DNA of 61,652 nt, the filler included, from Sluysia triapertura (taxonomy: Eukaryota), in assembly GCA_046118255.1 (NCBI GenBank). It is 4 parts of 4 records of this genome, joined end to end, with 100 filler letters (N's around TTAATTAATTAA, not from the genome) between each part and the next. Parts side by side here need not be neighbours in the genome. Positions count along the whole stretch, not along the records: positions 14,999 to 30,289 come from JBJNIA010232121.1; 3 more parts are not named here. The stretch is one strand, 5' to 3'. Every line of letters begins with the position of its first letter. The stretch's first letter is position 1. The notes beneath the pieces were generated by a model. The model made no database searches. It was not told where the DNA came from and saw nothing but the letters and a program-made list of their open reading frames with translations. Below are positions 87 through 57,921 of the stretch, one piece after another. A program made the translations under genes and the position numbers.

Positions 87-172
87 ATACTGTATTGAAG
101 CTTTATGGAAAATACATTAAATTTTAGGAAAACTCAAAAAATCTTTAGAAATTTAATAGTAAAATTTCTAAC

Positions 173-1183
173 GCTTTTGAAATGGATTTAAGTGCAGCTT
201 TTCTCTCCCGATGAAGAAACCAATTCAGAATATTTCTACACAATTTCGGAGGGCATTTTGTTTCGACAGAATCTGAATTTGGACACGCCAGTCTGAAAAA
301 GCGGTAATAATCATTTACAGACCAGGCCTTGCGAAGTCGAACTGCGAAGTCTAAACATGAATCTTGATAAGGAGGTGGCGGTAAACTGGCTAGAGTAGTA
401 TTAATATTCAGGAAATCTCGGGTAAACATGTAATACAGGATTCTGTATGCAGTAAATTCAAGATGATCTTCACATTCGATTCCTTCTTCGTATAATAGCT
501 TGATCTGACTTTGACATTGATTAAATTCCTCGTGATCACCAGCTTCCAATGCAATCGTGGCATGCACCTTATACACACGCAATGTGAACTCATCTCGCAC
601 ACACTGCACGGTGAGATCCTGTCGAATACTCTTCATCTGTTCGCACACATGTCGATAATCTAGATGCTGATCATACCACAAACTCATACAATGAACTAAA
701 GCTTTCTGAAGAACCAATGGTGGTCGCACTTCACTGGGTTGAGGAGCTCGAGTAAGTCTAAGATATCTTTTTTCCAATTGTTGGCATGTTCCAACGATAG
801 GACCAGATTGAGTTTCGTCAGCAACGACAGTGTTGACTGTTCCTACCCGGTCTATGCTCCAAGTTTCATCAGTATATCCGATATCTCTTGCCGATTCCAC
901 GTTCGCGCTCACGTTGTCATTTGAATCTACAGGAGCCTCCACAAACTGTCCCGAAGAATTCAAGTGCTCTTTAAATCGAGACGCTCTGTGAGCTAATTTC
1001 TCTGAACTTACTAAACATTGCTCCAGTTGAAATTTCTTTTTCCCTTTTTGTTTCTTTTTACTTATATTTTTGTTGGTAACAGTTATTTGAATTCCAGTAT
1101 CTTGGTTATTGTTATTATTACTCTCATTGTGGTTTTGATTTTCCGTTTGCTTGAGCTTCATCAATCGGCCGCCTTTTCCGATT
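173..1183 (-). CDS. LENG8: LENG8 exon 7 (SAC3/GANP domain)
   Basis: Acceptor TTAG ending at 1184, donor GC|GTTAGA at 172; SAC3/GANP motifs in ORF 145..1224. Confidence 0.93.
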
Positions 1184-4100
1184 CTAAGATAATGACTCGT
1201 TTCAAATTCAAATTTAAAAAACATTAACTACTTCATAATAAGGATTTGAAAATACATTTGAATGTTATTTTATTGTAAATTTCAGTAAGAAAGTTTTATT
1301 TAAAATTATTTACTGAGAAATAATTTGATAGAGAAATTTTGTTAGAAAAATCATTTGGTCTTAATCGATTTTATTTTAATAAAGATTTTTCATAAAGAAC
1401 AATAGATGTCAGAAATGAATTGAATTGAATTATATTATCAGATATTGAAATAAATTTAGAAAATTTTAGAAAATCTGACTTACACAAAATCACTGCAACT
1501 GTAAATTATATCAAATTTGAAAATTGAAAACCGATTTTAAAAAGTATGGATTTTGTGAGCGGAAAATCACCAGATCAAGTACTAATTTAAAAGATTACTA
1601 TACATTTCGATAACGCTTTTGGGATGACTAATACTAATATTGTAAAGAACAAAAACCAACCTGTTATCAATCGAATAAGGATTTGAGTTTTGTTGATCTT
1701 GATCGGCAGAAATCAAACGAAACTTTTTATTCTTCGAATGAAACTGCCGCTTATTAAAGTTGGAAGTGGAAGATGGCGACGAGGAACCACGACTTCTCTT
1801 ACGAATATTCTCGTTTGAATCACGCTTAGACCGATAATTGTCATAATCCTCGGCAATTGCGATCACATCATCGCCCGAAGATTCAGAATTCGACTTGTAG
1901 CGAATCCAAGATGATTTTGATTTATGACTAGAAGAGCTACGACGATTTCGACAGTGTCGAGAAATTGATCGAGTAGATCTACGCGACCTAGATTTAGATG
2001 ATCGAGACGATCGAGACCTCGACGATCTCGGCGATGATCTTGATCGCGAATCAGAACCAGATCTGGATTTTGTTCTATTTCTTTTATTACTTCGGTTAAA
2101 TCCGGTACTATATCTGGCTCCTCTACCTCGTCCGCGTGTACCACGTGCTAAATTACCACGAGTTGAGTGTGTCATGACTGGGGATCGAGACTTGGAACTA
2201 ACTGATGACTTAGAACAACTGACACGAGCCTTACTACGAGTACTATTACTACTGAAATTAGATGCATTAACAAAATGGGAGGCTGTATTGGAAGTGTTGC
2301 CTCTTTGGGAATAGAAATGGGCATTAGAAATATTATAATTAGTGGTGACAGAATGGGTAGGTAAGTTGTTATGTCTGGAAATAGATGTGGCTGTGGCCGA
2401 CAGTGGTGTTCTTCCATAATTAGGCGGCAGGTAATTAGAGGCCACTTGCAACCTAACAAATATCCCTTGTTAATTATCTAATTTGAACACATATCGGTTA
2501 ATGATTCAGAATAATGTTTTATAGAAAAATAATAGATTTATTATAAATTTAATAAAATATAGTTCGAATATTATGAAAAATTTCGCACCATCAACACTGC
2601 ATCAAAGTTTCGCATCTTTGAAATAAGATTAAATTTTCTACTACACTAGAACTCCAAAAACTGGAACATCCTGAAACGGGAACAACTTTCTATAACTGGA
2701 ACACACTTGTAGCTTTTATTTTTACTATAATTTTAGAACAGATAATTGTGTTTTGTTTAAATATTATTAACCACCATATTTTATTCATTTTTGTGATTAT
2801 TTCTTTTACTTTACAGATTTTGTTTGACACAGTATTTTAGTATCTAACTTAATACTTTGCATACCCATATAATGGGGCATCGAAATCAAAACGAAATCAA
2901 ATCAATTTAACACTAAGCGATAAATTTTAGAAAAAGTAGATGACACTGACAATAATATATTAGATGAATACACAAAATTTCAGAACTACTCTTTTCAACT
3001 TAAGAAAACAGAAACATGAGATATGCAAGCCACATCATCATCGTCAAATAAAATGAAATGATGTGAAAGGAAAATTATTAGCAACTTGAAAGGAGCTCAA
3101 CTTGTATAAATGATTCGTGTCGAAGAGGGTCTAACTATATCAGGTCCAATACCAGCAAATCTTTTATTTTAACTAAAACTAACTTCTTCCTGAAACTTGA
3201 ACATTGAACATGTTCCAGTTTGGGGAGTTCTAGTGTAAACGATTTGGAAGTTCTTCGAGGTACGCGGTTTTTAATTGGAATCTTTTAAGGAAACAGACCT
3301 AAGATGATTAACACCTGAAATTGATGTAATATTCTTTTCGAGGAAATGAAACTATACATATGCTAAATTTGCTATTTAAGATAGTAATGCGAAAATGTTT
3401 GAAGAATATTCGACAGAACATTATTGGATTCGAAGACCATTATTTATGAAAAGTAAACTATTTTTGTTACCATTTATTTACTTATCTAAGTTCATATAGA
3501 CCTTAAAATAATATCACACAAAATAAAATTTTGATCTGGTGATATTCTCTTGAACCACTACACAAAATGCAATCTTAAAATATGTTTTGTTTAGTTACAT
3601 GATTATATACCTTCGGCTATTTCAAATATTGAGAAAATATAAGTTAAGACTTAGAGCTCAAATTACGTTTGTAATTATTTAGATATTTTAAATTAATTTA
3701 ATAAAAACATTTTGTTAAATAAAACACATGACTCGAATTACTTCAACCGTTATTATTTGAAAATTAACATTAAGCATCGTAGTTCGAAGGGTCCCATTTT
3801 ATATACATGAGGTTTCATTTGTTGTTTCACTTAGGCCTTATTTATTGCTATCGACATAATTGTTAATGCAAATTATCAAATTTATGCTAAAAATGATTTC
3901 ATTGCTGTTGCGGAAACTTTAAGTTACCGAGTGTACAGAGAAAAGTAGTACTTCTGATCATTTAAAAACTAGAAGTACAAATAGCCGGTGACTGAGTACT
4001 TTAGAAAATCGGACTAAACTCATCATTTACTCCAACCCAATAATTGTTATGCTGTGAGTAATAATGTAATGTTTGATAATAAATTTAATAACGAAAAAAC

Positions 4101-7100
4101 TAACCCAAATCTTGTGGGACCAGACTGTGATGTTGGACCTTCAACGAGAGAATCCGATGTCAAGTCAATAGTAGTAGTTGTAGAAGTGGTGGTAGTATTA
4201 GTGCTGTGGTCCGACATGATCGGTAGTGGCTCGTTATCCCAATCAATTTCATGTACTTTATCTTTACTATAAACTTGTTCTAATTTTGATTTTAACAACG
4301 TTTGCATTTGATCCTTATATTCATCCTTCACGCTATTAAAGGCCCTCTGTACATACTTTCTAAATTAAATCAATAAAAACAAATAGAAAATGGATATATC
4401 ATAATAAAACATCCGTGACACCTCCCTATGTGACTACAACTACTAGTTCATTTGTCCGAGCTCTGCAAAAAGTACAAATTTATCATCATTGAATAAAACT
4501 AAAATAGATGAATATAGGAACTCCAACAAAAAGCTTCAATAACCTCCCTAAATCTTTGTACTTTTTCGCGTTGGTGCCCTTAGAATTCCTGATTTGAATC
4601 GTGCTTGATTCGAAAACCCGCTACTCAAAGTAGAAACTTTGATTCCCAGGTCTAATATGATTATAATAACCATATCCGATCAGTTTATCATCCTATTCTC
4701 CTAATGCCAGCTTTGTGGAATACAGTTCACGATTGATGGATATTATTCAGAGTTTCCTCAATTCTGGATATCACTTTTTTGTCGAGCGTATGCTTCTCAA
4801 TAATTAATGTATTATATCCGTCGTACCTTATATGTTTCAGTATTACTTAATTGATCAAGCACATTTTACAATCCACATTTATAATTTGTATGATTGCTTA
4901 ACCCTTTTGAAATTTTGCGACCGCTGTGCGTATATATTTCAGTGGTTTCGAGTTTATTTGTGCTGAGCTCATAAATTTCCTTATGCAATATATGGCATAA
5001 ATAGTCGTGGTTGAGCAGGAAACCATTTTAAAATACTCGCTTGGAGCGTATGAGACATTAGTTTTACGAATATATAAGTGTATAGCAGCGAATGGGTTAA
5101 TTTTCACTGGCTCTGAACTCAAAATATTTCTATTTTTTAGCAACGGGTCGTGGAATTCAGCACATTAATATCGGGGTTTGTAAGGACTAGAACAAAAAAC
5201 AAGTACAAAATATAGACATGGTTTTTTTCGCTCTTTTATACTAAGATGCAGTTCTTATATCCATCTACTAACTAACGACTGTTTTGGTATTTTTGATATA
5301 TTATAGTAAATAAATTATAACTAAGAAAATGAAATATGCTTATTAAGAGTCTTGAGACCACCGAATTACCTAAACATTGAGTTTAACAGCAGAAAATGCC
5401 CAGTTTTGTGAAGCATTTGGATAAAAGACATAACTCAAATACAATATTGACCGAATATTTTACACATTCGTTGAAACAATTTTTAGTAACCAAAATAACT
5501 ATAACTACAAGCAAATCAAGCAGAAAATAAATGATTGCTATTAGAAATATACTAAATTATCTTTGAAATTAATGGATTCATTAAAACATTGTTAGACAAA
5601 AGTTTACATCGATGGTCTCAGATCGTATCCGAAGTAAGTTTTAGTGGAATTAAATTTTAACGAGTTCCATGAAAAATAGATAATTTAAATTCAAGCATAA
5701 TAAAAGTTCTAAATTGTAAGGCACATCAAAGTGATAATACTTGAGAGTTTCGGGCCATATTTCTGTGCTAGATTTGGATGACGATTGGGAGGATGATACT
5801 TGTGATGATTGTGACTGAGATGAAGCAGTCCCAGACCCAGTACCTTTGTAAGGTCCTATGTTTGATCCTGACACGGACTTGGATCCTGTAGTACTGGCAA
5901 CATTTGCTGGCTGAAATCTAGATTTGCGCGGAGGTTTCAGATTTTTGCTGGGTGATATGGCAGCGGGTACATTAGGTGTTACTGTGCTTGATGCGTTATT
6001 AACAGTAGCTGTGTTTGAGTAATTAGGTGCTGTTTGACGTGGTTCTGTAAAATTCATCAAAATTAAAAATTAATACTAGTTTTGCCACAGTAATGCTTAA
6101 AAGATATTTCTACTTTTCTCAAGTATCTTCCAATAAAAAATCAAAAAATTGCAAAATAAAGTTACCATATACATCTAATGTAGCAATAGAGGGTCTAGCT
6201 TTTCAGCTGGCATGTTAGCTTTTGCAAATCCATCTAGTTATTCTGATTACAAACAGATTCATCTGACCGGCGTTCATCATAGAAATATCAATGTTAGTTA
6301 ACTCGGAAATTCGTAACTGGGATGATATGAATATGCATATAAAGATTTTGGAAAGCTCGGGAATTATTGATTTAACTAAACTTATGTATATTTAGGAGTG
6401 ATAAGAGGTTGATGTTGGCTCCGTAAAATAAGAATTAATATAATGAAACAAGCAAAATCTTAATAGAATCATGTAAAAATGACAAATATTAATTTATATA
6501 AGCTTAGATTTTAATTTGTGCATTTGATGAGAAATTTAATGTGCATAGGAGAAAAGGTTTTATATTTTCACATTCTTACGCTATTTGTTCAAATGTAAAC
6601 CACAATAATCTTAATGTGAAAACCCAATAACTGGAAATAAAGTTGAATAACGATAATTATTGTCTATTTCAATGTTATATAACGTATATCATCTTGTTAT
6701 CTTATATCATATTTTAGCAATAAAATAGTAAACATGTCAAACTTTATGGCACACTATTCTAAACAGGAAGTAAAAACTCTATCATGTCTATTATCGTATG
6801 AGAAATACAAAAAACCTTTTAAAACTAGTAATAAAACTACAAAGAATAACTTGCTATGATCCTAAATACATTGACTTGTCATATTAAAGTTATTAACACA
6901 ACTTGTTAAATTTTGATAAATTCCAAAAATTGATTTCCAAGTTTTATATTTCTTGTAAGTTTTATATTTTACATAATATAAGATAAATTCCAAGTCTTAT
7001 ATTTCTTGTACAATTGATTATTCCGTTTGTTATTGCTCCTAAAAATCATGTGAATGTTTCAACAGGCCCTAAGCTTGCAGTGAATTTTAATCGAAAAATT

Positions 7101-16490: not shown

Positions 16491-17360
16491 TTGAAACAAG
16501 ATTTATGCATTAATTTTGGTGGCTTCAATATGGTAGCACCAATATTACCATTGAAGGATGGAGTGTTCGGAAAACCCATGGGAGAGGTGATGTATACTTA
16601 CAAATGTAAGAAAGTTACGGTAAAACTATATGATAGTATTGAATGTACAAATGAGTTACCTGTAGAATACAATAATGAAAAACGATATGTAGAACCGGTA
16701 ACTAGAATTATTGTTCCGAGAGAAAATAAGGTCAAAAAACTGGATTGTTCAGTATTAATGTCACTATTGTATAAAATGCATGAGAACTATTGGATTTCTT
16801 TACCATCAAGAATTAGAGTAGAATCTCCCCCAGCTTTAAGTTTAATAGAATTAAAAAAAGGAATTATCTTTCAAACGGAAAATGATATTTTAAAAAGTGG
16901 AATGTATCAAATATCAGATATTAAGAAAGCATGGAATGAGATATTGTTTCCAATTAAAAGAGCACGAATATTAACCGAAATAGTGGATGCTGCATTACCA
17001 AAAGGCTCTAAGGCACCTAATTATGAATTATTACTAACACAAGATCACTTTGAACAGGCAGCGAAACATACTTTACACAAAATTTGGGGAAAATTTGCAG
17101 TAATTGGACAATTCTTTTCAGGGTGCATCGGAATCTATATTGTTATCAAAGCTATTATTATTGTATGCACTCAAGTGTTGTCAACGTATAACATCTATCG
17201 ATTAACCGGCTGTACGTGGAGAATCATCACAGGATTGATTCCCTCCATAGGGCATCATGTGGTGAGTCATGAACATACTCAAGTGATACAAGAACTGTCT
17301 AGCCCAAAAGTACCTAAGAATTATAATAACCACGAGAAATCTGGTGAAAGAAAACGATGA
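16491..17360 (+). CDS. Chuvirus (Jingchuvirales)-like envelope glycoprotein, C-terminal half (endogenous viral element)
   Basis: Ordered motifs GEVMYTYKC, CTNELPV, EPVTRI, DCS, W..LP, GMY...DI...W..I.FP, then W.KF..IGQFFSG.IGIY TM segment and a second hydrophobic helix (GCTWRII..LIPSI). This is the pattern I recall for chuviral G and its retroelement-captured copies. The N-terminal half is absent. Confidence 0.8.
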   Translation: MKQDLCINFGGFNMVAPILPLKDGVFGKPMGEVMYTYKCKKVTVKLYDSIECTNELPVEYNNEKRYVEPVTRIIVPRENKVKKLDCSVLMSLLYKMHENYWISLPSRIRVESPPALSLIELKKGIIFQTENDILKSGMYQISDIKKAWNEILFPIKRARILTEIVDAALPKGSKAPNYELLLTQDHFEQAAKHTLHKIWGKFAVIGQFFSGCIGIYIVIKAIIIVCTQVLSTYNIYRLTGCTWRIITGLIPSIGHHVVSHEHTQVIQELSSPKVPKNYNNHEKSGERKR

Positions 17361-17478
17361 GTCCTTAAATCCGCTGAAAATTGTTGAAGAAATACGACAG
17401 GAAAATAATAAAGACGCCATCAATAGAAAAAACTGTTATTATCTAAAGAAACATTATAATGGTTATAATATCTATTAA

Positions 17479-17730
17479 ACAATATTAGTAAATAAGTACT
17501 CCGTAAAAGGATTAATAGATACTGGATCACAAGTTTCCGCAATGAAAGAAAAGGAAAAGATAATAAGTAATAATGATTGTCTAGAAGGGATAAACGGAGA
17601 ATTAATAAGTGTTAGAAGTCTTTTAGTCGATATGGAAATATTAAATCAAAAGGGAGAACAAGACTTTACGTTTTAGACGAATGCTCAGAAGAAATGGTGA
17701 TTGGTATGGATATACTACAACAATTGAAAG
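17479..17730 (+). pseudogene. Retropepsin (A2 aspartic protease) domain 1
   Basis: ILVNKYSVKGLIDTGSQVS (DTG at 17518-17526) ... one frameshift ... ECSEEMVIGMDILQQL. Confidence 0.85.
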
Positions 17731-17999
17731 ACGTAGTTATACATCCGATTCAAGGATTACTAACATTAGATGAGATGAAAGAAATCGCAACTGAGTTAAA
17801 TATAATTGCTATTAATTCAGACTCTATTGAAAGCTTAGATATGACTGAGAGCGAAATAGACAAAATATTCTCAATGGAAAGTGAAGATAGTTCTGAGACG
17901 GAAAATCTATTTAACACCGCAATTAATACAACACCATCCGATGACATGTTGAACGAGACACCAATAGATGACACAACAAGTAAAATTACATTGGAAGAT

Positions 18000-18318
18000 A
18001 CTACAAGAAGAAGTAATAATCCTAGAGCAAAGGAACGACGAAGAAATAATGAACGTTATCAATAATATAACAAAGAACATCTTTTCTAATTACCAAATCC
18101 AGAATAATGTTTTAAAGTATAAGATGGAAGATAAAGTCCTAACGGTGGTACCTCAGTCGAGGAAAGCGATAATATTAACGAACTACCACCACGGTCAATT
18201 GGGAGGCCACCTTTCAACCAGAAGAACTATTGAAAGAATAAAAAGGAAGTATTACTGGATCAATATGGAATACGAAATCACACAGTGGTGTAAAAATGGT
18301 AAAATGTGTAATTTTTAG
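18000..18318 (+). pseudogene. Ty3/Gypsy-type integrase N-terminal zinc-binding (H2C2) domain with no catalytic core
   Basis: VVPQSRKAIILTNYHHGQLGGHLSTRRTIERIKRKYYWINMEYEITQWCKNGKMC; one expected Cys is Gly. A protease follows directly, not a DDE core. Confidence 0.85.
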
Positions 18319-18429
18319 AATGAAGTAGTAAAGGAACAAGCCAAACAGGAAGGCATACAAGATGATGATACTATGATAATACTATGAAACAAAATTTTAT
18401 ATGGCAAGATATAGAGCCACCTCCTTACA

Positions 18430-18720
18430 GATTGTATCAGGATATCATAATTAATGGAAAGCTAATACAAGGACTAATCGATACAGGTTCAGACGTAAGC
18501 ATCAGACGATATGAAGATATACCAGAACAAGAAAAGATAATGTTATTGGAAGTATTTGAAAAATTTGATGGAGTCGATACATCAACCATGATATTTAACT
18601 GACAGAAAGTAGAAATTAGAATTGAACAGTATAACTTTCACATAGAAATAGCGATAGTACGTAACTGTCCAGAAGAAGTAATAATCGGAATGGACATATT
18701 AGAAAAGTTCCCAGATATAC
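18430..18720 (+). pseudogene. Retropepsin domain 2
   Basis: IIINGKLIQGLIDTGSDVS (DTG 18480-18488), in-frame TGA at 18600, then IVRNCPEEVIIGMDILEKF. Confidence 0.85.
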
Positions 18721-19089
18721 TTATAAAAAAGGATTGAACTAAAAAAGAGGTTAAAGAAACCGAATGTCATAGAAATCTTACCCAATAGAAATCAGCTTAT
18801 CTTTCAAAAAGGAAAAAAGTATAAATACATGTTTAAAGGAAGAGATCAGTACACAGAAATGGAAGATTTATTACAAAGACTAGAAAAGGCTATAAAAAAC
18901 CCGGAGGACATAAACGAATTAGAAAGTCATCAACACTATGATGAATTCACGTAATCCTCTACAATTATATCCAGACTTGAAACATAGACTAAACATAATA
19001 ATACAAAATTGGCCATTTCACCAAATAATTCATATGAATTATTTAGTAATATGGCTGATATGGAAAGAAATTGGTATGGAAAAGCTAAT

Positions 19090-19326
19090 ATGAAAGTCAT
19101 AATGAGAATAGATGGAACGGAACAATAAATAGAAAAGGAATTTCACGTTTGACTGACAGTATCATCTTTACTAGATTTCGTAAAAACGTATTTGAATATA
19201 ACTCAAAAAATAAATTTGAATTATAGAGGAAGAGTATTAGACAGAGATTATGGACTATATTTAATTGATTTTGCATTCCCAATAAACTATCTAATTGACG
19301 ATGACGAAATCACAATTACAATTGGA
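19090..19326 (+). pseudogene. Ubiquitin-like domain copy 1
   Basis: MKVIMRIDGTEQ*IEKEFHV*LTVSSLLDFVKTYLNITQKINLNYRGRVLDRDYGLYLIDFAF...EITITIG follows the beta-grasp pattern (TV..L helix, L.Y.G..L, L.D[FY]); two stops. Confidence 0.6.
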
Positions 19327-19830
19327 AATGATGAAAATAGTAACCCTAAATCTCCTAATGAAGCACAAACATCTTCGGAAAACTGTTGAAAATGGTTGAA
19401 GAAATACGACAAGAAAACAATAAAGACCCCATCAATAGAAAAATCGTAAATCGGGAATTATATCGTGAGGTGTTTAGAGAATTAGCAATAAGTAATCAAC
19501 AACGAGAAAGTTGTTACCTAGGCGAGTACAACCAACTTATCTATTAGACGAAGCATTGAATAACGAGAGAAGAATATTAATGCTTCCTAGAAGAGAACCA
19601 AGTCCACATAAACATGATCATTTATATGAAGAATTAGAAGACGCATTAAAAGAACCAGTAAATTCAATGAGACTAAAAGTAGTAATCGACATTGTTTTAG
19701 AATCAGGGGAATTGTTACATGAATACTCACATCTCAAACACCGACTAAATGAAATTGCACAGTTCTGGATACCTAGTCGAAGGGCAAAAATTTATCAATT
19801 ACTCCGTGATATAAATATGGAGGAAGATTA

Positions 19831-20061
19831 ATTAAGGTAAAAGTGAGAGTGGAAGGACAAAATATGATTCTAGAAAAGAATTTTCGTATTAATATAGATA
19901 TAGACTTGCTAAAATCATTTGTAGAAGCTCGAGCAGGTGTCTCCGGAGAAATAGATATGTATTACAGAGATCGAATTTTGCTGGAAGATACATACCTATT
20001 GGATTATGGATTTCCAATAGATTTTCTAACCGTTCAGGATGAAATTATTGCAATAGTGAAA
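19831..20061 (+). pseudogene. Ubiquitin-like domain copy 2
   Basis: IKVKVRVEGQNMILEKNFRINIDIDLLKSFVEARAGVSGEIDMYYRDRILLEDTYLLDYGF...EIIAIVK aligns with copy 1 and with ubiquitin (LK..V....G; L....L.DY). Confidence 0.65.
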
Positions 20062-20224
20062 AACAATGAAAATGACGGTCCTTATAAAATGAATTGTTTT
20101 AATCATCATTTCGAAATATGGAGAGAAAATGAAATACGAAATCAAAGAAGGGATAGATTTCTACCGCCACGAATAAATGAACATTCCTACATGGCTCAGG
20201 ATAAAGAGAACCATAAGCATACAT

Positions 20225-20480
20225 TTTTATCAACAATTGGATTTAATGGAAATAAATATCGACACAGGCGCGACTCATTCATTTATTAATGTAGAAATAT
20301 TAAATAAAGAAATGATACAAGATATAACTCCACATTTTGGTATCATAACGTCGGTAGTAGGTGAAAAAATAAATTTAATAGGAAAATTAAAATGCGAATA
20401 ACAGTTGCTGGAAGAATAATTACTTGTACTCCAAGAATTATAAAGGATTCTCAATATGACACAGAATTGCTACAGGAATA
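20225..20480 (+). pseudogene. Retropepsin domain 3 (truncated)
   Basis: INIDTGATHSFIN (DTG 20261-20269)...ITSVVGEKINLIGKLKC, frameshift, ITVAGRII. Confidence 0.8.
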
Positions 20481-20559
20481 GAATATACTAGAATGTGACG
20501 ATCTGATAATCCCATGCTTCACTCCTGATTACTAAAACGGTGTATTAGGTTGTGGTAAT

Positions 20560-20830
20560 AAGACTATTCTGCTTATGTTTTCCTAATAATCAGCCACATG
20601 AGTATTTGCAACAAAAGTGTTCGATATCACATAATGCAAATAGTTCAACAAAAGAAAATAGCTTGTTTTATAACAAAGCTTTCAAGTTGTTTGTACAAAG
20701 GTCGTTTAATGATCCCGTGAAATGATTCCACCATCCCATTTGTTTGTGGATAATTCGTGTTATCCAAGTTTTCATCGAATGCTATATTTCGAAATAATCC
20801 ACCATTACAAGTAACTATTATTCAAAATTA
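20560..20830 (-). mobile_element. Retroelement integrase catalytic-core relic, opposite strand
   Basis: Minus strand IIVTCNGGLF...TNYPQTNGMVESFHGIIKR matches the IVTDNG..F / YHPQ.NG.VER.H..IK motifs. Confidence 0.7.
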
Positions 20831-50211: not shown

Positions 50212-53200
50212 ATGAATGTTATTAAATTATTTCTTTATATAATGCCACTATACAAATTACATGGTATTAATGGAATCGAAGATTTTTCTGATAGGTTTCA
50301 ATTTAGATTTATTCCATTCGTGCTGGTAGTGTGTGGAATAACAGTTTTTTTATGCGGCTTTTTGCGATGGCCAATTACATGTATATTTGCAAATAATCCG
50401 TATGGTATGAATTTTCATGAATATTCGGAATATTTATGTTTTACTGAAGGCACTAGTGTAATTCAATATCACATTTCTTCACATTCAAATGATATAGATA
50501 AATATTCTTTACGCTACTATTCATGGTTACCGTTTTTATTTCTTTGTCAAATAATTATGTTTTCTATACCAGAAATTATATGGAAAAAGGTGCATAAAGA
50601 GTGTGTAGGATGTTCATTAAAGCCGATTATTGTGATAGGGTTAAATATAAATAATAGTGATATGGATGATAAAGAAAGAAATTCAAAATTAAGTGACTTA
50701 ACTGAAGCAGTTAGAAAAATAAACAACTTCGTTAGATTTTTATTTTTTAAAAACAATTTTGTCAAATTATATATGCATTTTCCTCAATAAACATACGAAA
50801 ACTTATTTTATATTCACCTTAATATATTCTAAAATAAATTTTTGGTCAAAACTTGATATTCATTTTATTTGAAGTTAAACTATAATAAAATCTAACGTTT
50901 GTAATCTTAATAAATTAGAATTTTTCTATTTAATACTAGGCAGAAAATTTATTCTTAAAAAGGTTGAATTCTACTGTTAGGACCATTTTTATGCGACTAA
51001 CAGACTCTGCCGGCAATTTTTCTATTATTGCTACTTTGATTACGATGATAGACCTAAATGATAGGTTTACGCAGAATCCAAAGGCATTTATAAATGGATA
51101 ATTAATGTCCATTGTTCTAAAACGTAAGTTATTTATTGAGATAAATAGAATAAGCTTCTCTGTGTTATGCCGTTCAGATGGAGACTGTATTTTTTGTAAT
51201 GGTAATGAAATGTTAAGAGACATTAAGAATAAAGTTAAACTTGAAGTGGAATATTATGAAATGTTCTGCTTAGTTCCATTGGAGAAGAGTGATGATATTA
51301 AACATTGCATAAATTTCAGTCATATAAATACTGCAACAAGATATTAGCATTTCAAATGCTATCCTTTCAATAATTAGCACAATAATTGGTAGTCCTAATG
51401 TATTTTCACTGCTTGGTGCAAGGAAATATCAAATGTTAGTACACTAGGTTGAGAGAAATACTATATTTTCATGCGGTTTTCCTAGCACTTAACCATGGCA
51501 AAAAAAAATTGAGCAGGTTCCGGTTACGGTAAATAACTTATAAGGTAGGATGGGCGTTACTGCAACTGTAAATTAACAATTCTTATCTTAAACTATATCT
51601 TTAAATGAATGTTTTTCCTTTTAATTATGCAATTTAACTTCCTTTTATTCCTTTAATAATTATTCTTAGAGGTTCTTGTACTACCTTGCTTTTTAAATTA
51701 CAAATCAAAAATGCACTTTACATAATAAATAAAACAATGAAAATTTAACAATTTATTCGAAACAATACAAATTTATAATAGACATTTATAAAAAAATCAG
51801 GTGCAACAATAAAAATAAATTTAAAATAAAAACCTATTAAGTATTTAATTTATAATAGTAACGAATTTTAAAATGAAGTTTAACCGTCAATATATCGGGG
51901 AAATCAAGTGTATAAATAAAAATTTGGTAGATTTTATGATATTAATTTCTGTTCAGATTTAACTAAAACTTAACTGGACAATTATAAAATATATTAAACG
52001 GGTCCACCTATAATCTAAGTTTTATATCTCACGGAAGACTTAGTTATAGGATTGTAATATGTCAACGCTACGAAAGAGTCCTTACTATCAATTATGTATA
52101 TCTATTGACTACTGATTAATGTTACTTAATTGTATCTTTTTATAGCAGACTCAACAACTTTACGAATCAAATACAAAAATTAAAATAACAAAGTTTAATA
52201 CTCTAAATATTCTACGAATTTTTATTTTTCACAAAGAAAATATTTAATAATACAAGTGCGAATAAGTGAATATTTAATAATATAAGTGCAAATAATAACA
52301 ATAATAGTAAATATATCAATTTAAGGATTTCTCCTAAATTAAATTATTGAATAAGATTTTAGTATGATTTTAACCCAGGTGAATACTTGAGTGTGGAAAA
52401 TGAATATGATTTTGAGTATATTTTAATACAGCAAAACTATTTTATTTTTATGTACTTTTATAAGTTATTATTGATTTAATTAATTAAAAAGTTAAACAAA
52501 ACAATTTTATAATTTTAATATCTACATAATCTACATAATATCTACATTTCAAAAAATAACTTACGAAGTTCATGGAATTGGGAAATAAAATAAACAAAAT
52601 GAAATAAGATAGACAAAATTGAGTGTTGCAGAATAATATTATTAGCCTTCTCCAGATGCAATTGATGTTGATAAACTGAAGGCCTTCAGATTAATTATAA
52701 TGTTTTTGTTAAAATTGCGAATAAAACCAAAATTTCTGCTGAAATTGTGAAAAATAAAATTATAACAATGTGACTATTTGTATAGGCTAACAGCCAATCA
52801 AAATCGAATAGATTTCTAGAATGTTCTAGAAACTTCGTTGTATTTTATAAGCAAATTTGTTTTGGAAAATAAGTTTCTTTTTTTATAAAATTGGTCTTTT
52901 AAATAATTTTAGACAATTGTAATGACAACCTAACGTAACTTACTCATTTAAAAAAATTTGACCTCAAAATTTGACACATTTTACAATGAAATTAGGGATT
53001 AAGTGATAAAATATAGAACGATATACATATGTAATCAAAAAGTTTATTACTGTAATTATTCCATCAATAACCTTCATTGTGATCAAATATGTTCAGATCA
53101 TTGTTGTCATTTAACCCATGTCAATCTCTATCCCAGCCATAAAGGTCATCCCGGGGAGAATGGGAGGCGTCGTCAAACTGTCCAGGAGAAAGCAAGTCGA

Positions 53201-55258
53201 TACAGCGACAGGAGAGTAGAGGAGAATTAAACGTAAAAATCTTCTTAATCGCCAATTATTGTGGGATTGGTTGCTACTGGAGAAAGAAAAGAATGAGGAA
53301 ACGAATGTGGTAAAAATGACAGATCCTTTAGCCAAATATGATCAAATAAAAGAATGGCATATTTAATAATCAAGGCAAGACAATTTTCGAGGAAAAAGGT
53401 GAGGTCATTTTATCACCTGTTTTGCTTTTATGAAAGGATCGTCTGAAGAGAATGACACTAAATTGGTGTTGGTGAGGAAACAATACCCGTCAACCAAACC
53501 TAAGGAATGTTCTATGGATTATAAGTAATTCGGGGTATAATGATACTAAAAACTTGTCGAAAAGCTGCGAATTTCTTCAATATCCTTAGCTGTAGGTTAA
53601 ATGTTCTTCATTGAGTCCATGAATTTCTTTATAAAAATTTTTTAACTCGTACTCTAAGTCGCAGGATTTCCAGTGTATGATACTTTTTCTGATAAGGTAT
53701 ACAACACAATTGCTTATCGTTCACGTTAAAAACATGATAGAATGATGTGTCTCATCAAAGACGGATAAGAACGGTACGTGAGTATAAGTACGACACTCCT
53801 GTCACAACAAAATGTTGAACATAAGTGTCGTACAAATGTGATGAACATGTTTTGTTTTCGAAGGAAAGCATGAAAGAGTATGGTTAAGGTGGAAGGATAT
53901 TTTCCAGCTTCTGTTCTATTCCATTTTAAGAAACGAATAGTCCAACAAAATAGGATATTATTAACCAGAAAGATTATTAATCGTGATTGAAGGAAAGTTG
54001 GCGGAATACGTGTGTTACAAGGTTAGTATTTCGGGTTAAAAGAATTGGTGGTACATTTCGGAGGTGGAAAAGAAACACAGTCAGACCCGCAAATACTTTG
54101 TCCGTTGGCTAAGTAGATGTGATCTAAAACGACATAAATTATATAAAAAAGGAAAAAATCGTCATATACAAACAAAGCAAAAAAATTTTGTAAATTATTC
54201 TTTTAGTATTTACATATTGTAAAAAAATTATTTTAAAGAATTGCAAAGAGGTAATTTGTTTAAGGAAAGGGTTCGGTCTAATGTTAAGGTGTTTATTGTA
54301 GAGGCCATTGGCCTTGTAAAATCTTTTCAATTCATGCACCCGCCTACTACGTTTTTGCGTTTATAGTAAGGCTCGTGTATGGTGACTACAGCATTGAAGT
54401 TAATTTGAGCACTAGATAAATAAGTGCAAATAGTGTCTGTATCTGGCTATGTAGAAAATTTGATAAGCTGTTAAAGTTGGACGACAAAAATGACAAATGG
54501 GATAAGCAGTGGGATAATTGTAGAGAAAAAAGATATACCTAAAGTGAAATCGATGATATCGAGGCATAGAAGAAGCTTGGTGTTTTCTGAGTGTTTTTAA
54601 ACAAATTGAGCAGATGGAAAAACCTATATCTAAAAAAATTAAATTTAACAAAAGATGTATAATAAATTTATAGAAAACCTAAGTAATCTTTTTCTTAATT
54701 ACAAATGAAATTATGCTGCGAGAAAGATACATATAGCTACATCCTTAATTCGCCGCAACCAGGTGTATAGAAAAAACCACAACGACGGTCGGTTCTCAAA
54801 TTGAAGGATATACTATTTCCTAAGCACAAACTGGATACTTATGTCGACGAGTTAAAAGCAGATTATATTTAATAGCTTCAAGCAACACGATTGATGTTAA
54901 ATAAAAATGTACAGCATTTAAACAAAAATAACTTATTAAACATGACTCATTAAAGAAATTTAAATATTTATTTAAAAATTCAGTTAAACAAAAAGAGGAA
55001 ATTTCAGTCCGTACATTTAGTTTTGTTTTATATTGCTATCAAAATCCTTTATTTATGCAACGTGATATTTCAATTATGGTTTGTGGAGCACATATTTCGA
55101 ATTGATAAATCATCTCAAAATACGTTCGGTTTTTCTATTTTAAGACGCATTATTGATCATACAGATCAAACTTTCAATGTAACTCAGACTATTTTCCCCA
55201 GATATGCATTTTGCCATGTTGAATTCAAATTATTAGCTGGTGTAAATAAATATGTTTG

Positions 55259-55319
<61 letters not shown>

Positions 55320-57921
55320 ATTATTATTATTTGCAGTTTTTCTAAGATATTAATTAACTATTAAAGTTTTATCTCGAACATCAAACTAAGATGAAATAAA
55401 TGAATAAGGGAGAAGAAACCCATCTAATTGTTTACCATGTTTCAGTATCTGAATAATAGACTAATTATTAAAGATTCAAACCAGTTATTTCAATAAGAAA
55501 TATTTAATTTAACCTACTATTACCTGCAGCGAACTTAATTAACCAATATATAATTTATTAAACTCGCAGTTACGATGACATTTAAGTAAACAAGTCCACA
55601 CATAACTTTTCTACATGCTAGAATTATACTATAAACAAAATTATCGTTTTAAAATAAGGTAAGTAACAGATCTTATTGATGAATTATGTAAAAATGTCAC
55701 TTTTGAATTACTGCCATTCATGAGTTAATTTGCTTTAGTGTAATAATAGAAAATAAAAACAGTGATCAATATACTATGGATAATAATAAAACAATTTTAT
55801 GTATAATAACAAAAATTATCAATGCATTTTTCCAGTTAATCACTTAAAGCTCTTTTGAAGAAACAATTGAGCCACAAATTCAATGTGTTAATTTTGAATC
55901 AATATTCGATAAAAATGAACAATTTCTTTTCTGTGCCTGTAAATTTTCAATCAATTCGGATTCTAAAAATCTGGAGTCTATTTTTGAGCACAAGTTTTTA
56001 TATCACGATATTTACGATTTCATGAATGGTGTCTATATTAACATTGACTCGAAATCAATTTCCGTTATTTTTTTATTAATGATACAAATTATATTAATAT
56101 AAAATGATGCGGTGGGATTGATTAATTCTATCACTAGCCGATTTAATATTTTCCTTATGAGCAAAGTCGATTAATGGGTTGCCATTCTTTGGTTTTGTGT
56201 AATTGTTGATTCTGGAATTTTTAAAAAACTTTTGAAACTAGAAACTTTCGCCGTTTTTATCTTCATCCTTTATTAAAACCATTCTGTAGCTTTTATTAGG
56301 ACTATTTGTTTTTTGATTAATTTTGTTTAATTTTTTATTTACAATTGATTTTTGATATGTAATTTTGATTTTTTTTTCGTCCTTTTCATCATTAGTATTT
56401 TTAATTTTAGAGAATTCTTCAGCCGGTATTTCTAATTTTTTATTCGCACAAATGACTTTTCCATTTATAGAAACATCTTCTGTTACTAAATTTTGAATTT
56501 ATATATTTAATCTGAATTTAAATTAGTTTTATGCGAAAACATTATTATCTGAATAATATTAAATTAAAATGAGCATATATTTATGGAGATTATAATAGAG
56601 CATTTATGCAGATTTTATGAAGATTATATTACAATAGTAATTTACATGTATTTGGTCTTTTGTAATAGTTAAATGTTTGTTAGTATTCATCTTTTGCGCT
56701 GCTTTTCGTATTTTATTAGATTTAATTTGTGAATGTCTGAACTTTAATTATCCGAATACAATACACACCATTAACAATTAACTAAATGTAAGAAAATATC
56801 AGTATAACGCATATATTCCAAGTTACGCAAAATCCACTGCAGAAATTAGTTTGAAGGCTTTGGTTTTAATCAAGGAGTTGTATCCAAATTCAATATTTAA
56901 ATTGTCGGCGAGCTGGTGTCAGCTTTTCGTGAAGAGGAATGATAATTTGTAAGAATAAGAGATAATTCAATAATGTAGAAAATTGGTTGTTAATCAGAAA
57001 TATACAATAATTTAAGGAAGAGGTATGAATATCGAAGAATTCAAGAAATTTTGTATGACTAATGTCATGGACGGAACGAGTAAGATGATATTTATGGTGT
57101 GAAAATGAATTAATGTTCGGAGAATATGATAAGCCAATTGAAATTGAAAATTTGACAGAGAGAAGATGAAAATAATTGTCTCCGTAATGAAGAAACTTTA
57201 TTTGAATGAAAATAAACATTTTTGCAACAATTTATTCTTATCTGGATTCCTAATTTTCTAAACAGGATAAAAATTATTTACTGATCACGATCATCATTCA
57301 AAAAATAAGACTAAAAGCGTGATATGTAATGGATATTTACTGTAATTTCTTACTATTATCTTGTTTAAAGATGTTTCTAAATGTCTTCAAAATACTTTTG
57401 AAAGTTTATTCTACCGTTTTTGTACATTCTCACATACATTAAAATTATTTCGTAAATATTCAGATTCACTCTAGATATTTAAATTTATTTAGATTTTTAA
57501 TAATTTTATTTTTATTATTTAGGTTGCTCAATGTGTTTTACCATTAAACATATTACTGGAGAAATTATTCGTTATACTTTGTTTGCTCTTTTTAGTATCA
57601 GGAGCTTTTACATTAATGTCTATATTTTATTGGTTAATAAAACTATTTACACGTCAACGCGTAAGGTATTTTGAAAGACTTCTTAAATACCACAGTGACT
57701 ATCGTCGACAATTTGATGATTCTAATAATAATTTGGATAAAGTAATTACTTTTGAAGAATTGACAAAAGAATTAAATGTTAATAATAGTTTTCTATTAAT
57801 GATGATTGGTTATAATTGTGGTGAAATATTATTAGCTGAAATTCTGTTGAAAATAGAAAATAATCAGCTTAGTGCTAATATGAATGGTAAAAATGCTGAC
57901 AATCAAAAGCAGTTCTTTTGA
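50212..57921 (+). CDS. inx: Innexin (gap-junction protein), 3 exons, 395 aa
   Basis: Exons 50212-50730, 54984-55253, 57523-57921, all phase 0. Motifs EDFSDR, PITC, EYLC, YYSWLP, KILYLCN, FPRYAFC, QCVLPLN..EK; four hydrophobic segments. Confidence 0.93.
52794..52850 (+). promoter_or_regulatory. CCAAT box, five-unit heat-shock element, TATA-like box
   Basis: GCCAATCA at 52794; tTTCt-aGAAt-gTTCt-aGAAa-cTTCg at 52813-52837; TTTTATAA at 52843. Confidence 0.55.
53100..54135 (-). pseudogene. ORF-X copy 2, decayed
   Basis: LFDKFLVSLYPELLI, IP*VWLTGIV/LTNTNLVS...DPFIKAKQVI, KDLSFLP align in order with copy 1. Confidence 0.6.
54412..54651 (-). pseudogene. RING-H2 finger gene copy 2
   Basis: CSICLKTLRKH...HRFHFRYI...ICHFCR; two Cys ligands lost; aligns with copy 1 with at most a one-residue gap. 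Confidence 0.7.
56780..57110 (+). mobile_element. pogo-family transposase relic in innexin intron 2
   Basis: FKLSASWCQLFVKRN (CENP-B-type HTH) and FKKFCMTNVMDGT (pogo C-terminal FKK..I.N.LDG motif); the middle is deleted. Confidence 0.6.

Follow-up and report, generated by a model that had tools for sequence, protein, structure and literature searches.

The front end of pol in a multi-copy, Burro-like gag-env-pol Gypsy element of Sluysia triapertura is a tandem array of retropepsins and helical+ubiquitin-like (UBL) modules. LTR retroelements are generally thought to have one protease; a lineage with four DTG retropepsins, a fifth one with DTA and three helical+UBL modules under selection raises the question of the role of the extra domains. 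Taken as a whole, the account that we judge moderately probable is that of an array element in which a module derived from the gag side would provide a ubiquitin-proteasome handle on the pieces of a cleaved polyprotein.

The element copy in the window

Within the window, by which we mean the whole stretch of 61,652 nucleotides that was analysed, the element is represented by a decayed, LTR-less internal piece of 3.9 kb (16528-20459, plus strand); the matches of other copies begin at 16528 and end at 20459. When the own genome (619 Mb, 263,945 contigs) was searched with DNA, at least 70 matches came back, with 40 scored of 132 candidates, and a search with protein gave at least 151, with 150 scored of 278 candidates, both counts being lower bounds. 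The piece is composed of the following units:

16528..17360, plus strand: C-terminal part of env, a gB-type/Monjiviricetes-like fusion glycoprotein (PF24664, E 6.8e-43)
17488..17720, plus strand: retropepsin PR1, broken, end approximate (DTGS at 17512-17538)
18088..18315, plus strand: extra integrase H2C2 zinc-binding domain without integrase core (PF17921, E 1e-13)
18462..18722, plus strand: retropepsin PR2 with one stop (PF00077, E 2.5e-5; DTGS at 18474-18500)
18850..19062, plus strand: helical domain 1 (HEL1), frameshifted, four helices, generic alpha-solenoid-like (quoted motifs at 18868-19012)
19078..19329, plus strand: UBL1, predicted beta-grasp, without di-Gly, two stops (quoted motifs at 19075-19332)
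19379..19443, plus strand: an inserted stretch of some 60 bases that has 89% identity to 17367-17431 and is missing from the close copies L002 and L022
19440..19612, plus strand: linker 2, containing the in-frame junction left by loss of the middle protease, PRmid
19613..19813, plus strand: helical domain 2 (HEL2; quoted motifs at 19622-19768)
19810..20064, plus strand: UBL2, a paralogue of UBL1, without di-Gly (quoted motifs at 19816-20070; hhalign UBL1/UBL2 probability 99.5%)
20065..20214, plus strand: linker 3, a paralogue of linker 2 (hhalign probability 99.5%)
20215..20459, plus strand: retropepsin PR3, frameshifted and truncated, which precedes RT in other copies (DTGA motif at 20252-20284)

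The first-pass annotation had described two diverged helical+UBL units ahead of a retropepsin, and all eight motifs that it quoted were located in the window. Beyond that description come two further proteases upstream in the window, a protease (PRmid) between the units in most copies, and env upstream.

The window copy is dead. Its units are spread over different frames, with frameshifts near 18926, 19023, 19511, 19814, 20258 and 20399, and the stops within UBL1 lie at 19126 and 19150. A natural copy elsewhere in the genome (L002) is open over the whole stretch in one frame of 610 codons, which starts at the end of one protease, takes in both units and reaches into the next protease; given this stop-free copy, no sequence repair was therefore needed. 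The contigs of run X1 covered all 30 bins of 17300-20600, yet no contig spans the full stretch; no RNA source was listed for it. A deep back-joint from 19987 to 19739 (window 19739-19987) in these contigs might come from copies in which part of unit 2 is duplicated once more. Elsewhere the window holds a host SAC3/GANP-family gene (145-6069, minus strand; E 1.6e-15) and innexin exons (50212-57921, plus strand; E 4.6e-20 and 1.4e-13). The innexin exons mark the host as an invertebrate, and a planarian would fit the element layout and the A+T content.

Architecture of the element

Mapped on other copies, the order of domains is env-PR1-acidic-H2C2-PR2-HEL1-UBL1-(PRmid)-HEL2-UBL2-PR3-beta domain-RT-RNase H-IN, and thus contains the PR-RT-RNase H-IN order of Burro-like Gypsy elements. 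Upstream of env stand a retrotransposon Gag, a CCHC knuckle, another helical+UBL module and a weakly scoring Bcl-2-like domain (E 0.01-0.03, below the cut-off). Gag was recognised as Retrotrans_gag (PF03732) with E 1.9e-6 in one locus (L227) and E 0.04 in another (L029), and it lies on the same contigs as the array in L029 and L033. The zf-CCHC knuckle is weak in L185 (E 0.19) and reaches E 2e-5 in a sister element, and the gag-side UBL was found by profile, with weak PF00240 matches (E 0.01-0.13). In L033 a single contig extends from the gag-side UBL to RT and includes env, PR1, PR2, PRmid, PR3 and both modules; in each of L126 and L148, one open frame takes in the tail of env and PR1. A conserved domain of 110 residues lies between PR and RT, for which Pfam and PDB sequence searches name no match; MATH, BIR and ankyrin accessory domains were absent from the frames covered by the Pfam scans. 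No intact or full-length copy was seen in the assembly of 263,945 contigs, and we infer a single long polyprotein from overlapping natural open frames in different copies. The idea that the module belongs to a host gene was rejected because every longer locus places it among element proteases, and that of an assembly artefact because many contigs carry the same architecture.

The closest published layout is that of the giant planarian Gypsy elements Burro/GYPSM1, which the relevant part of the source gives as Gag, a Ubi/SUMO-like domain, BCL2, an in-frame mononegavirus-like env, PR, a dUTPase-like domain and RT (PMC6431247). The likeness extends to a Gag with CCHC knuckle, a Ubi/SUMO-like domain before the BCL2-like one, a fusion glycoprotein of mononegavirus type that sits in frame after gag and before pol, and then PR, beta domain, RT, RNase H and IN (the same part of PMC6431247). 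That description names one gag-side UBL and one PR, whereas the focal element has two extra pol-side helical+UBL modules among four proteases, along with an additional H2C2 domain and, downstream of the integrase, a fifth protease-like domain. Burro-like Gypsy elements have a total length above 30 kb and long LTRs. In terms of novelty, the gag-side UBL in Burro is already published, according to the same portion of PMC6431247, and the pol-side protease-UBL array is the part that may be new. The paper searches yielded no report of a multi-protease, UBL-interleaved pol, although Grohme 2018, its supplements or Repbase GYPSM1 may depict it for Burro-2 to -4; the portions of PMC7072860 and PMC11410931 covered hold nothing on a UBL-interleaved pol region. 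Platyhelminthes GAG-ENV-POL errantiviruses resemble the focal element in their gB-type env and gene order and differ in that extra proteases go unmentioned in the text portions examined (PMC13524379); the word "ubiquitin" is absent from the main text and seven text supplements of that paper.

Additional domains were noted at both ends of the element. The retropepsin-like domain that follows the integrase carries DTGA in sister families (L133:6365-6660, L140, L146, L151) and DTA in place of DTG in the focal family (L022, L025, L030, L105), and the two groups join at 95/86 in the protease tree. Past the integrase (L022:1459-2481, minus strand; in L133 after the post-integrase protease) the frame continues with hydrophobic stretches and PPPY motifs, which might resemble a late domain or a membrane accessory protein. 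On the gag side, an open frame of 894 codons (L222:269-2950) has an unrelated N-terminal half in front of the region with the gag-side helical+UBL module and the Bcl-2-like domain; a variant element or a domesticated chimera might account for it.

Fold and sequence of the helical+UBL module

Units 1 and 2 are 35% identical (E 6.9e-26), and their profiles align with a probability of 100% over 162 columns. An AlphaFold model of unit 1, built with an alignment of 24 natural stretches, reached a pLDDT of 72 and consists of a four-helix part followed by a beta-beta-alpha-beta-beta-beta part. Ubiquitin-like folds lead its structural matches (best Z 11.3 at an rmsd of 1.7 Å across 76 residues, a score on which many matches tie), and all 50 matches listed span residues 79-164, the UBL part. 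Foldseek agrees weakly, with UBLs on top (best E 1.4e-3 in the PDB and 5e-4 in the viral library). UBL1 is thus predicted to have a beta-grasp fold, on which the first-pass annotation had staked its reading, and the same fold is predicted for UBL2 by its homology to UBL1 and not by a separate fold model.

The UBLs are not conjugatable ubiquitin-like modifiers: neither ends in di-Gly, as had been noted at the outset, and none of 19 UBL1 copies and none of 15 UBL2 copies has GG within its final 15 residues. A ubiquitin-fusion cleavage signal for host deubiquitinases was rejected as a candidate function, given UBLs without di-Gly. Placed by eye against host ubiquitin, the Ile44-like site is hydrophobic (Y, F, I, M) in almost every motif listed for the four UBL classes, but the Ala46 and Lys48 sites carry residues unlike those of ubiquitin. 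Both this surface motif and an L(I/L)D(Y/F)G(Y/F)P motif are common to families whose UBLs are only about 25% identical.

Folded alone, the helical part gave a pLDDT of 75. Its best structural match reached Z 7.8, to assorted helical-repeat proteins, with none at 8 or above among 48,161 chains, and the best Foldseek match had E 1.8; the model looks like a generic helical-repeat piece, and the HDD of Ddi1 is not among its listed fold matches. Pfam has no family name for the pol-side UBL or the helical part, and PDB sequence searches with the 610-residue frame and alignments A1, A2 and A3 returned no significant match. Leads in the Atlas all stayed below 0.9, some of them to clusters with PF11976/PF00240 members, and the helical part found no match there. 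Beyond the own genome, the profile of alignment A1 had 0 matches among 1.84 billion representatives, and two word-index searches for relatives, which are weak evidence, found none.

Variable number of units

The pol-side module occurs in 61 of the 212 groups of fetched loci. Among loci that span the region between the first UBL and the next helical domain, PRmid is present in 17/27 and absent in 10/27, the window included; three rearranged loci (L038, L040, L119) were excluded from this count. The junction without PRmid lies within an open frame in all 12 copies examined and occurs as at least two different junction sequences, and the lineage of the window lost PRmid in frame. One locus (L073) represents a one-unit variant, and PR2 stands directly ahead of PRmid in two others (L072, L148). 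A search blind to the module fetched 30 loci by their dUTPase-like region, of which 7 were left out for too little upstream DNA; in the 23 top loci with at least 700 bases upstream, a UBL lies right before PR3 in 15, both modules are internally deleted in 2 and 6 are truncated. The repeat unit would thus be helical-UBL-linker-protease, which probably expands and contracts by recombination.

In-frame deletions in L072 and L148 of the focal family and in L144 and L145 of the sister elements leave a gap of about 40 residues between two retropepsin domains of the same chain. Such close spacing could allow a single-chain, pepsin-like pair.

Selection on the array

The modules were under purifying selection, with dN/dS of about 0.3. 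Among diverged pairs, values ranged from 0.25 to 0.36 for HEL and UBL, from 0.22 to 0.34 for the four proteases and from 0.13 to 0.18 for RT, and stood at about 0.24 for the extra H2C2; the pairs are non-independent, their sets may mix paralogues, and the counting method gives values that are too low where transitions are in excess. The comparison left out copies of short cover and those with more than one stop. The closest pairs gave 0.4-0.8, as would be expected once post-insertion decay is added. Third codon positions differ most in five of five orthologous pairs. An early duplication of pol may have left behind the H2C2 between PR1 and PR2, which would then have retained a role.

Proposed function of the module

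A possible course of events is as follows. Gag, Env and Pol would be made as one long polyprotein, which its proteases would cut by autoproteolysis, and this would free pieces with an integral UBL. On the pieces so released, the UBL would act as a built-in ubiquitin-proteasome handle and control how fast the protease and Pol pieces joined to it are turned over, or where they are located. Such control would be needed because a single-frame gag-env-pol yields Gag, Env and Pol at 1:1:1, and a single-frame element would be unable to tune the levels of its pieces by frameshifting. We propose tentatively, as the most probable of the readings considered, that the UBL engages the proteasome or ubiquitin receptors and thereby sets the turnover or location of protease and Pol pieces. 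The hydrophobic Ile44-like site speaks for such a handle; against it stand the unlike residues at the Ala46 and Lys48 sites and the fact that some copies, such as the two internally deleted loci mentioned above, lack the modules. A comparable arrangement is known from coronavirus nsp3 Ubl2-PLpro, where an integral UBL lies just N-terminal of a protease in a self-processing polyprotein, but there the protease is a cysteine protease of an RNA virus and the likeness is an analogy only (PMC5228125, in part). The isolated protease and UBL domains are small and easily assayed.

The module might also be a structural accessory or spacer, which folds independently and spaces or stabilises the proteases with no ubiquitin-proteasome role. 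The variable number of units and the absence of the module from some copies would suit such a role, and dN/dS of about 0.3 is compatible with selection for the fold only; the coronavirus precedent also agrees, as the part of the source on the adjacent UBL finds it dispensable for catalysis in vitro (PMC5228125). We find this reading rather doubtful, since such diverged families share both the surface motif at the Ile44-like site and L(I/L)D(Y/F)G(Y/F)P, and since a two-domain module of 160 residues is large for it. Were the modules only spacers, they would be a curiosity of planarian-type giant elements.

A further reading takes a freed UBL-linker-protease piece to be a convergent Ddi1-like enzyme, which would use its UBL to find ubiquitinated or proteasome-bound host proteins and cleave them, with the extra proteases no longer tied to polyprotein processing. 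Seen as UBL-linker-PR, each element has two stretches ordered like Ddi1; the four upstream proteases retain DTG under the constraint reported above, though processing needs one; and the Bcl-2-like domain in the same polyprotein is likely a host-manipulation module. In yeast, the Ddi1 UBL increases ubiquitin-chain affinity, according to the part of the source on this domain, but Ddi1 activity needs the HDD (PMC7149228), and the linker before the element proteases has no similarity to the pre-protease helices of host Ddi1 (probability 0.1-0.2%). Ten of the 27 spanning loci have lost PRmid with both UBLs kept, and the same module lies far from any protease on the gag side. In view of these points the convergent enzyme is unlikely, and it is quite unlikely that the retrotransposon independently built Ddi1-like enzymes from its own parts, as duplicated UBL-linker-retropepsin units released from a five-protease polyprotein, for UBL-guided cleavage of host proteins that are ubiquitinated or bound to the proteasome.

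That the array is neutral debris from template switching and unequal recombination, retained only since the frame must stay open, is very unlikely: the many deletion variants (one unit, tandem PR2-PRmid, no unit) and the dead window copy would be expected of debris, but dN/dS stays near 0.3 for HEL and UBL across subfamilies close to silent-site saturation, and fold and motifs are retained.

Origin of the module and relation to Ddi1

In contrast to its proposed role as a ubiquitin-proteasome handle, the descent of the module can be stated with some assurance: it was very probably duplicated from the gag-side helical+UBL of related elements, and not captured from Ddi1. The pol-side UBL profile gives a median of 16.5 bits on sister gag-side UBLs (n=39) and 8.2 bits on those of the own family (n=20), against at most 5.5 (195 shuffles) and 8.5 bits for shuffles. 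On 20 host UBLs its best score is 9.5 bits, and the Ddi1 UBL ranks 19th of 20 at -1.3 bits. The whole module matches the sister gag-side module with a probability of 95.6% (E 1.3e-8, 136 collinear columns), with a weak match for the helical part alone (probability 8.7%; median 1.4 bits). This sister module is abundant, with 150 scored of 1,919 candidates. The pol-side UBL is nearer to the sister gag-side UBL (probability 92-94%) than to that of its own family (11-15%), so the donor and the order of events are not fixed. A quick UBL tree separates all 28 element UBLs from the 20 host UBLs at a weak support of 78, and the Ddi1 UBL falls on the host side. Sister post-integrase and post-env linkers were tried as sources of the pre-protease linker and rejected, as they gave no match.

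The first-pass annotation had placed a Ddi1-like domain set within a mobile element, by capture of the Ddi1 design or convergence on it. Integral, non-conjugatable UBLs beside retropepsins are borne out, and so is the general likeness to Ddi1/DDI2, in which UBL, helical and retropepsin domains occur in one chain without di-Gly (PMC5028754, PMC7149228, each in part). Capture, on the other hand, was not supported. Ddi1 runs UBL-HDD-RVP and its activity needs the HDD, in the corresponding parts of PMC5028754 and PMC7149228, whereas the element has helical-UBL-linker-PR, in repeated units within a retroelement polyprotein, and its UBL, linker and protease are without a Ddi1-specific sequence signal.

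The proteases were compared with a host Ddi1 gene found in the genome (L121), and these Ddi1 comparisons have limited power because they rest on this one Ddi1 sequence. Ddi1 proteins are the best PDB sequence matches of PRmid (E 9e-5), and a protease tree of 44 rows, which the first-pass annotation had proposed with Ddi1 included, places host Ddi1 beside PRmid+PR3 (92/39). The branch in question is long (2.31), and a topology that puts Ddi1 outside PRmid+PR3 is not rejected (AU p 0.33); the protease tree therefore decides nothing on this point. PR1 groups with PR2 in it at 100/97. The profiles speak against capture: PF09668 scores host Ddi1 at 128.7 bits, the focal proteases at 30-37 and ordinary sister proteases at up to 39, and the PRmid and PR3 profiles give 57-58 bits on sister Gypsy proteases against 24 on host Ddi1, on which even a plain sister protease profile reaches 29.5. 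The element proteases thus do not appear to belong to the Ddi1 RVP subfamily, nor does the element UBL, set against this single Ddi1 sequence, appear to belong to the Ddi1 lineage. With the low score of the Ddi1 UBL and a helical domain that precedes the UBL, it is extremely unlikely that the element captured a host Ddi1/DDI2 gene. A Ddi1-like domain set can evidently be assembled from retroelement parts, which bears on the possible origin of Ddi1 itself.

Two observations concern the host genes. No UBA was seen in the frame examined of the host Ddi1 gene, which ends soon after the protease domain and has a very short intron in that domain. Several further loci (L240, L241, L242, L245, L248, L249) are expanded, diverged ubiquitin-like host genes that end in GG and group together in the UBL tree at a support of 97.
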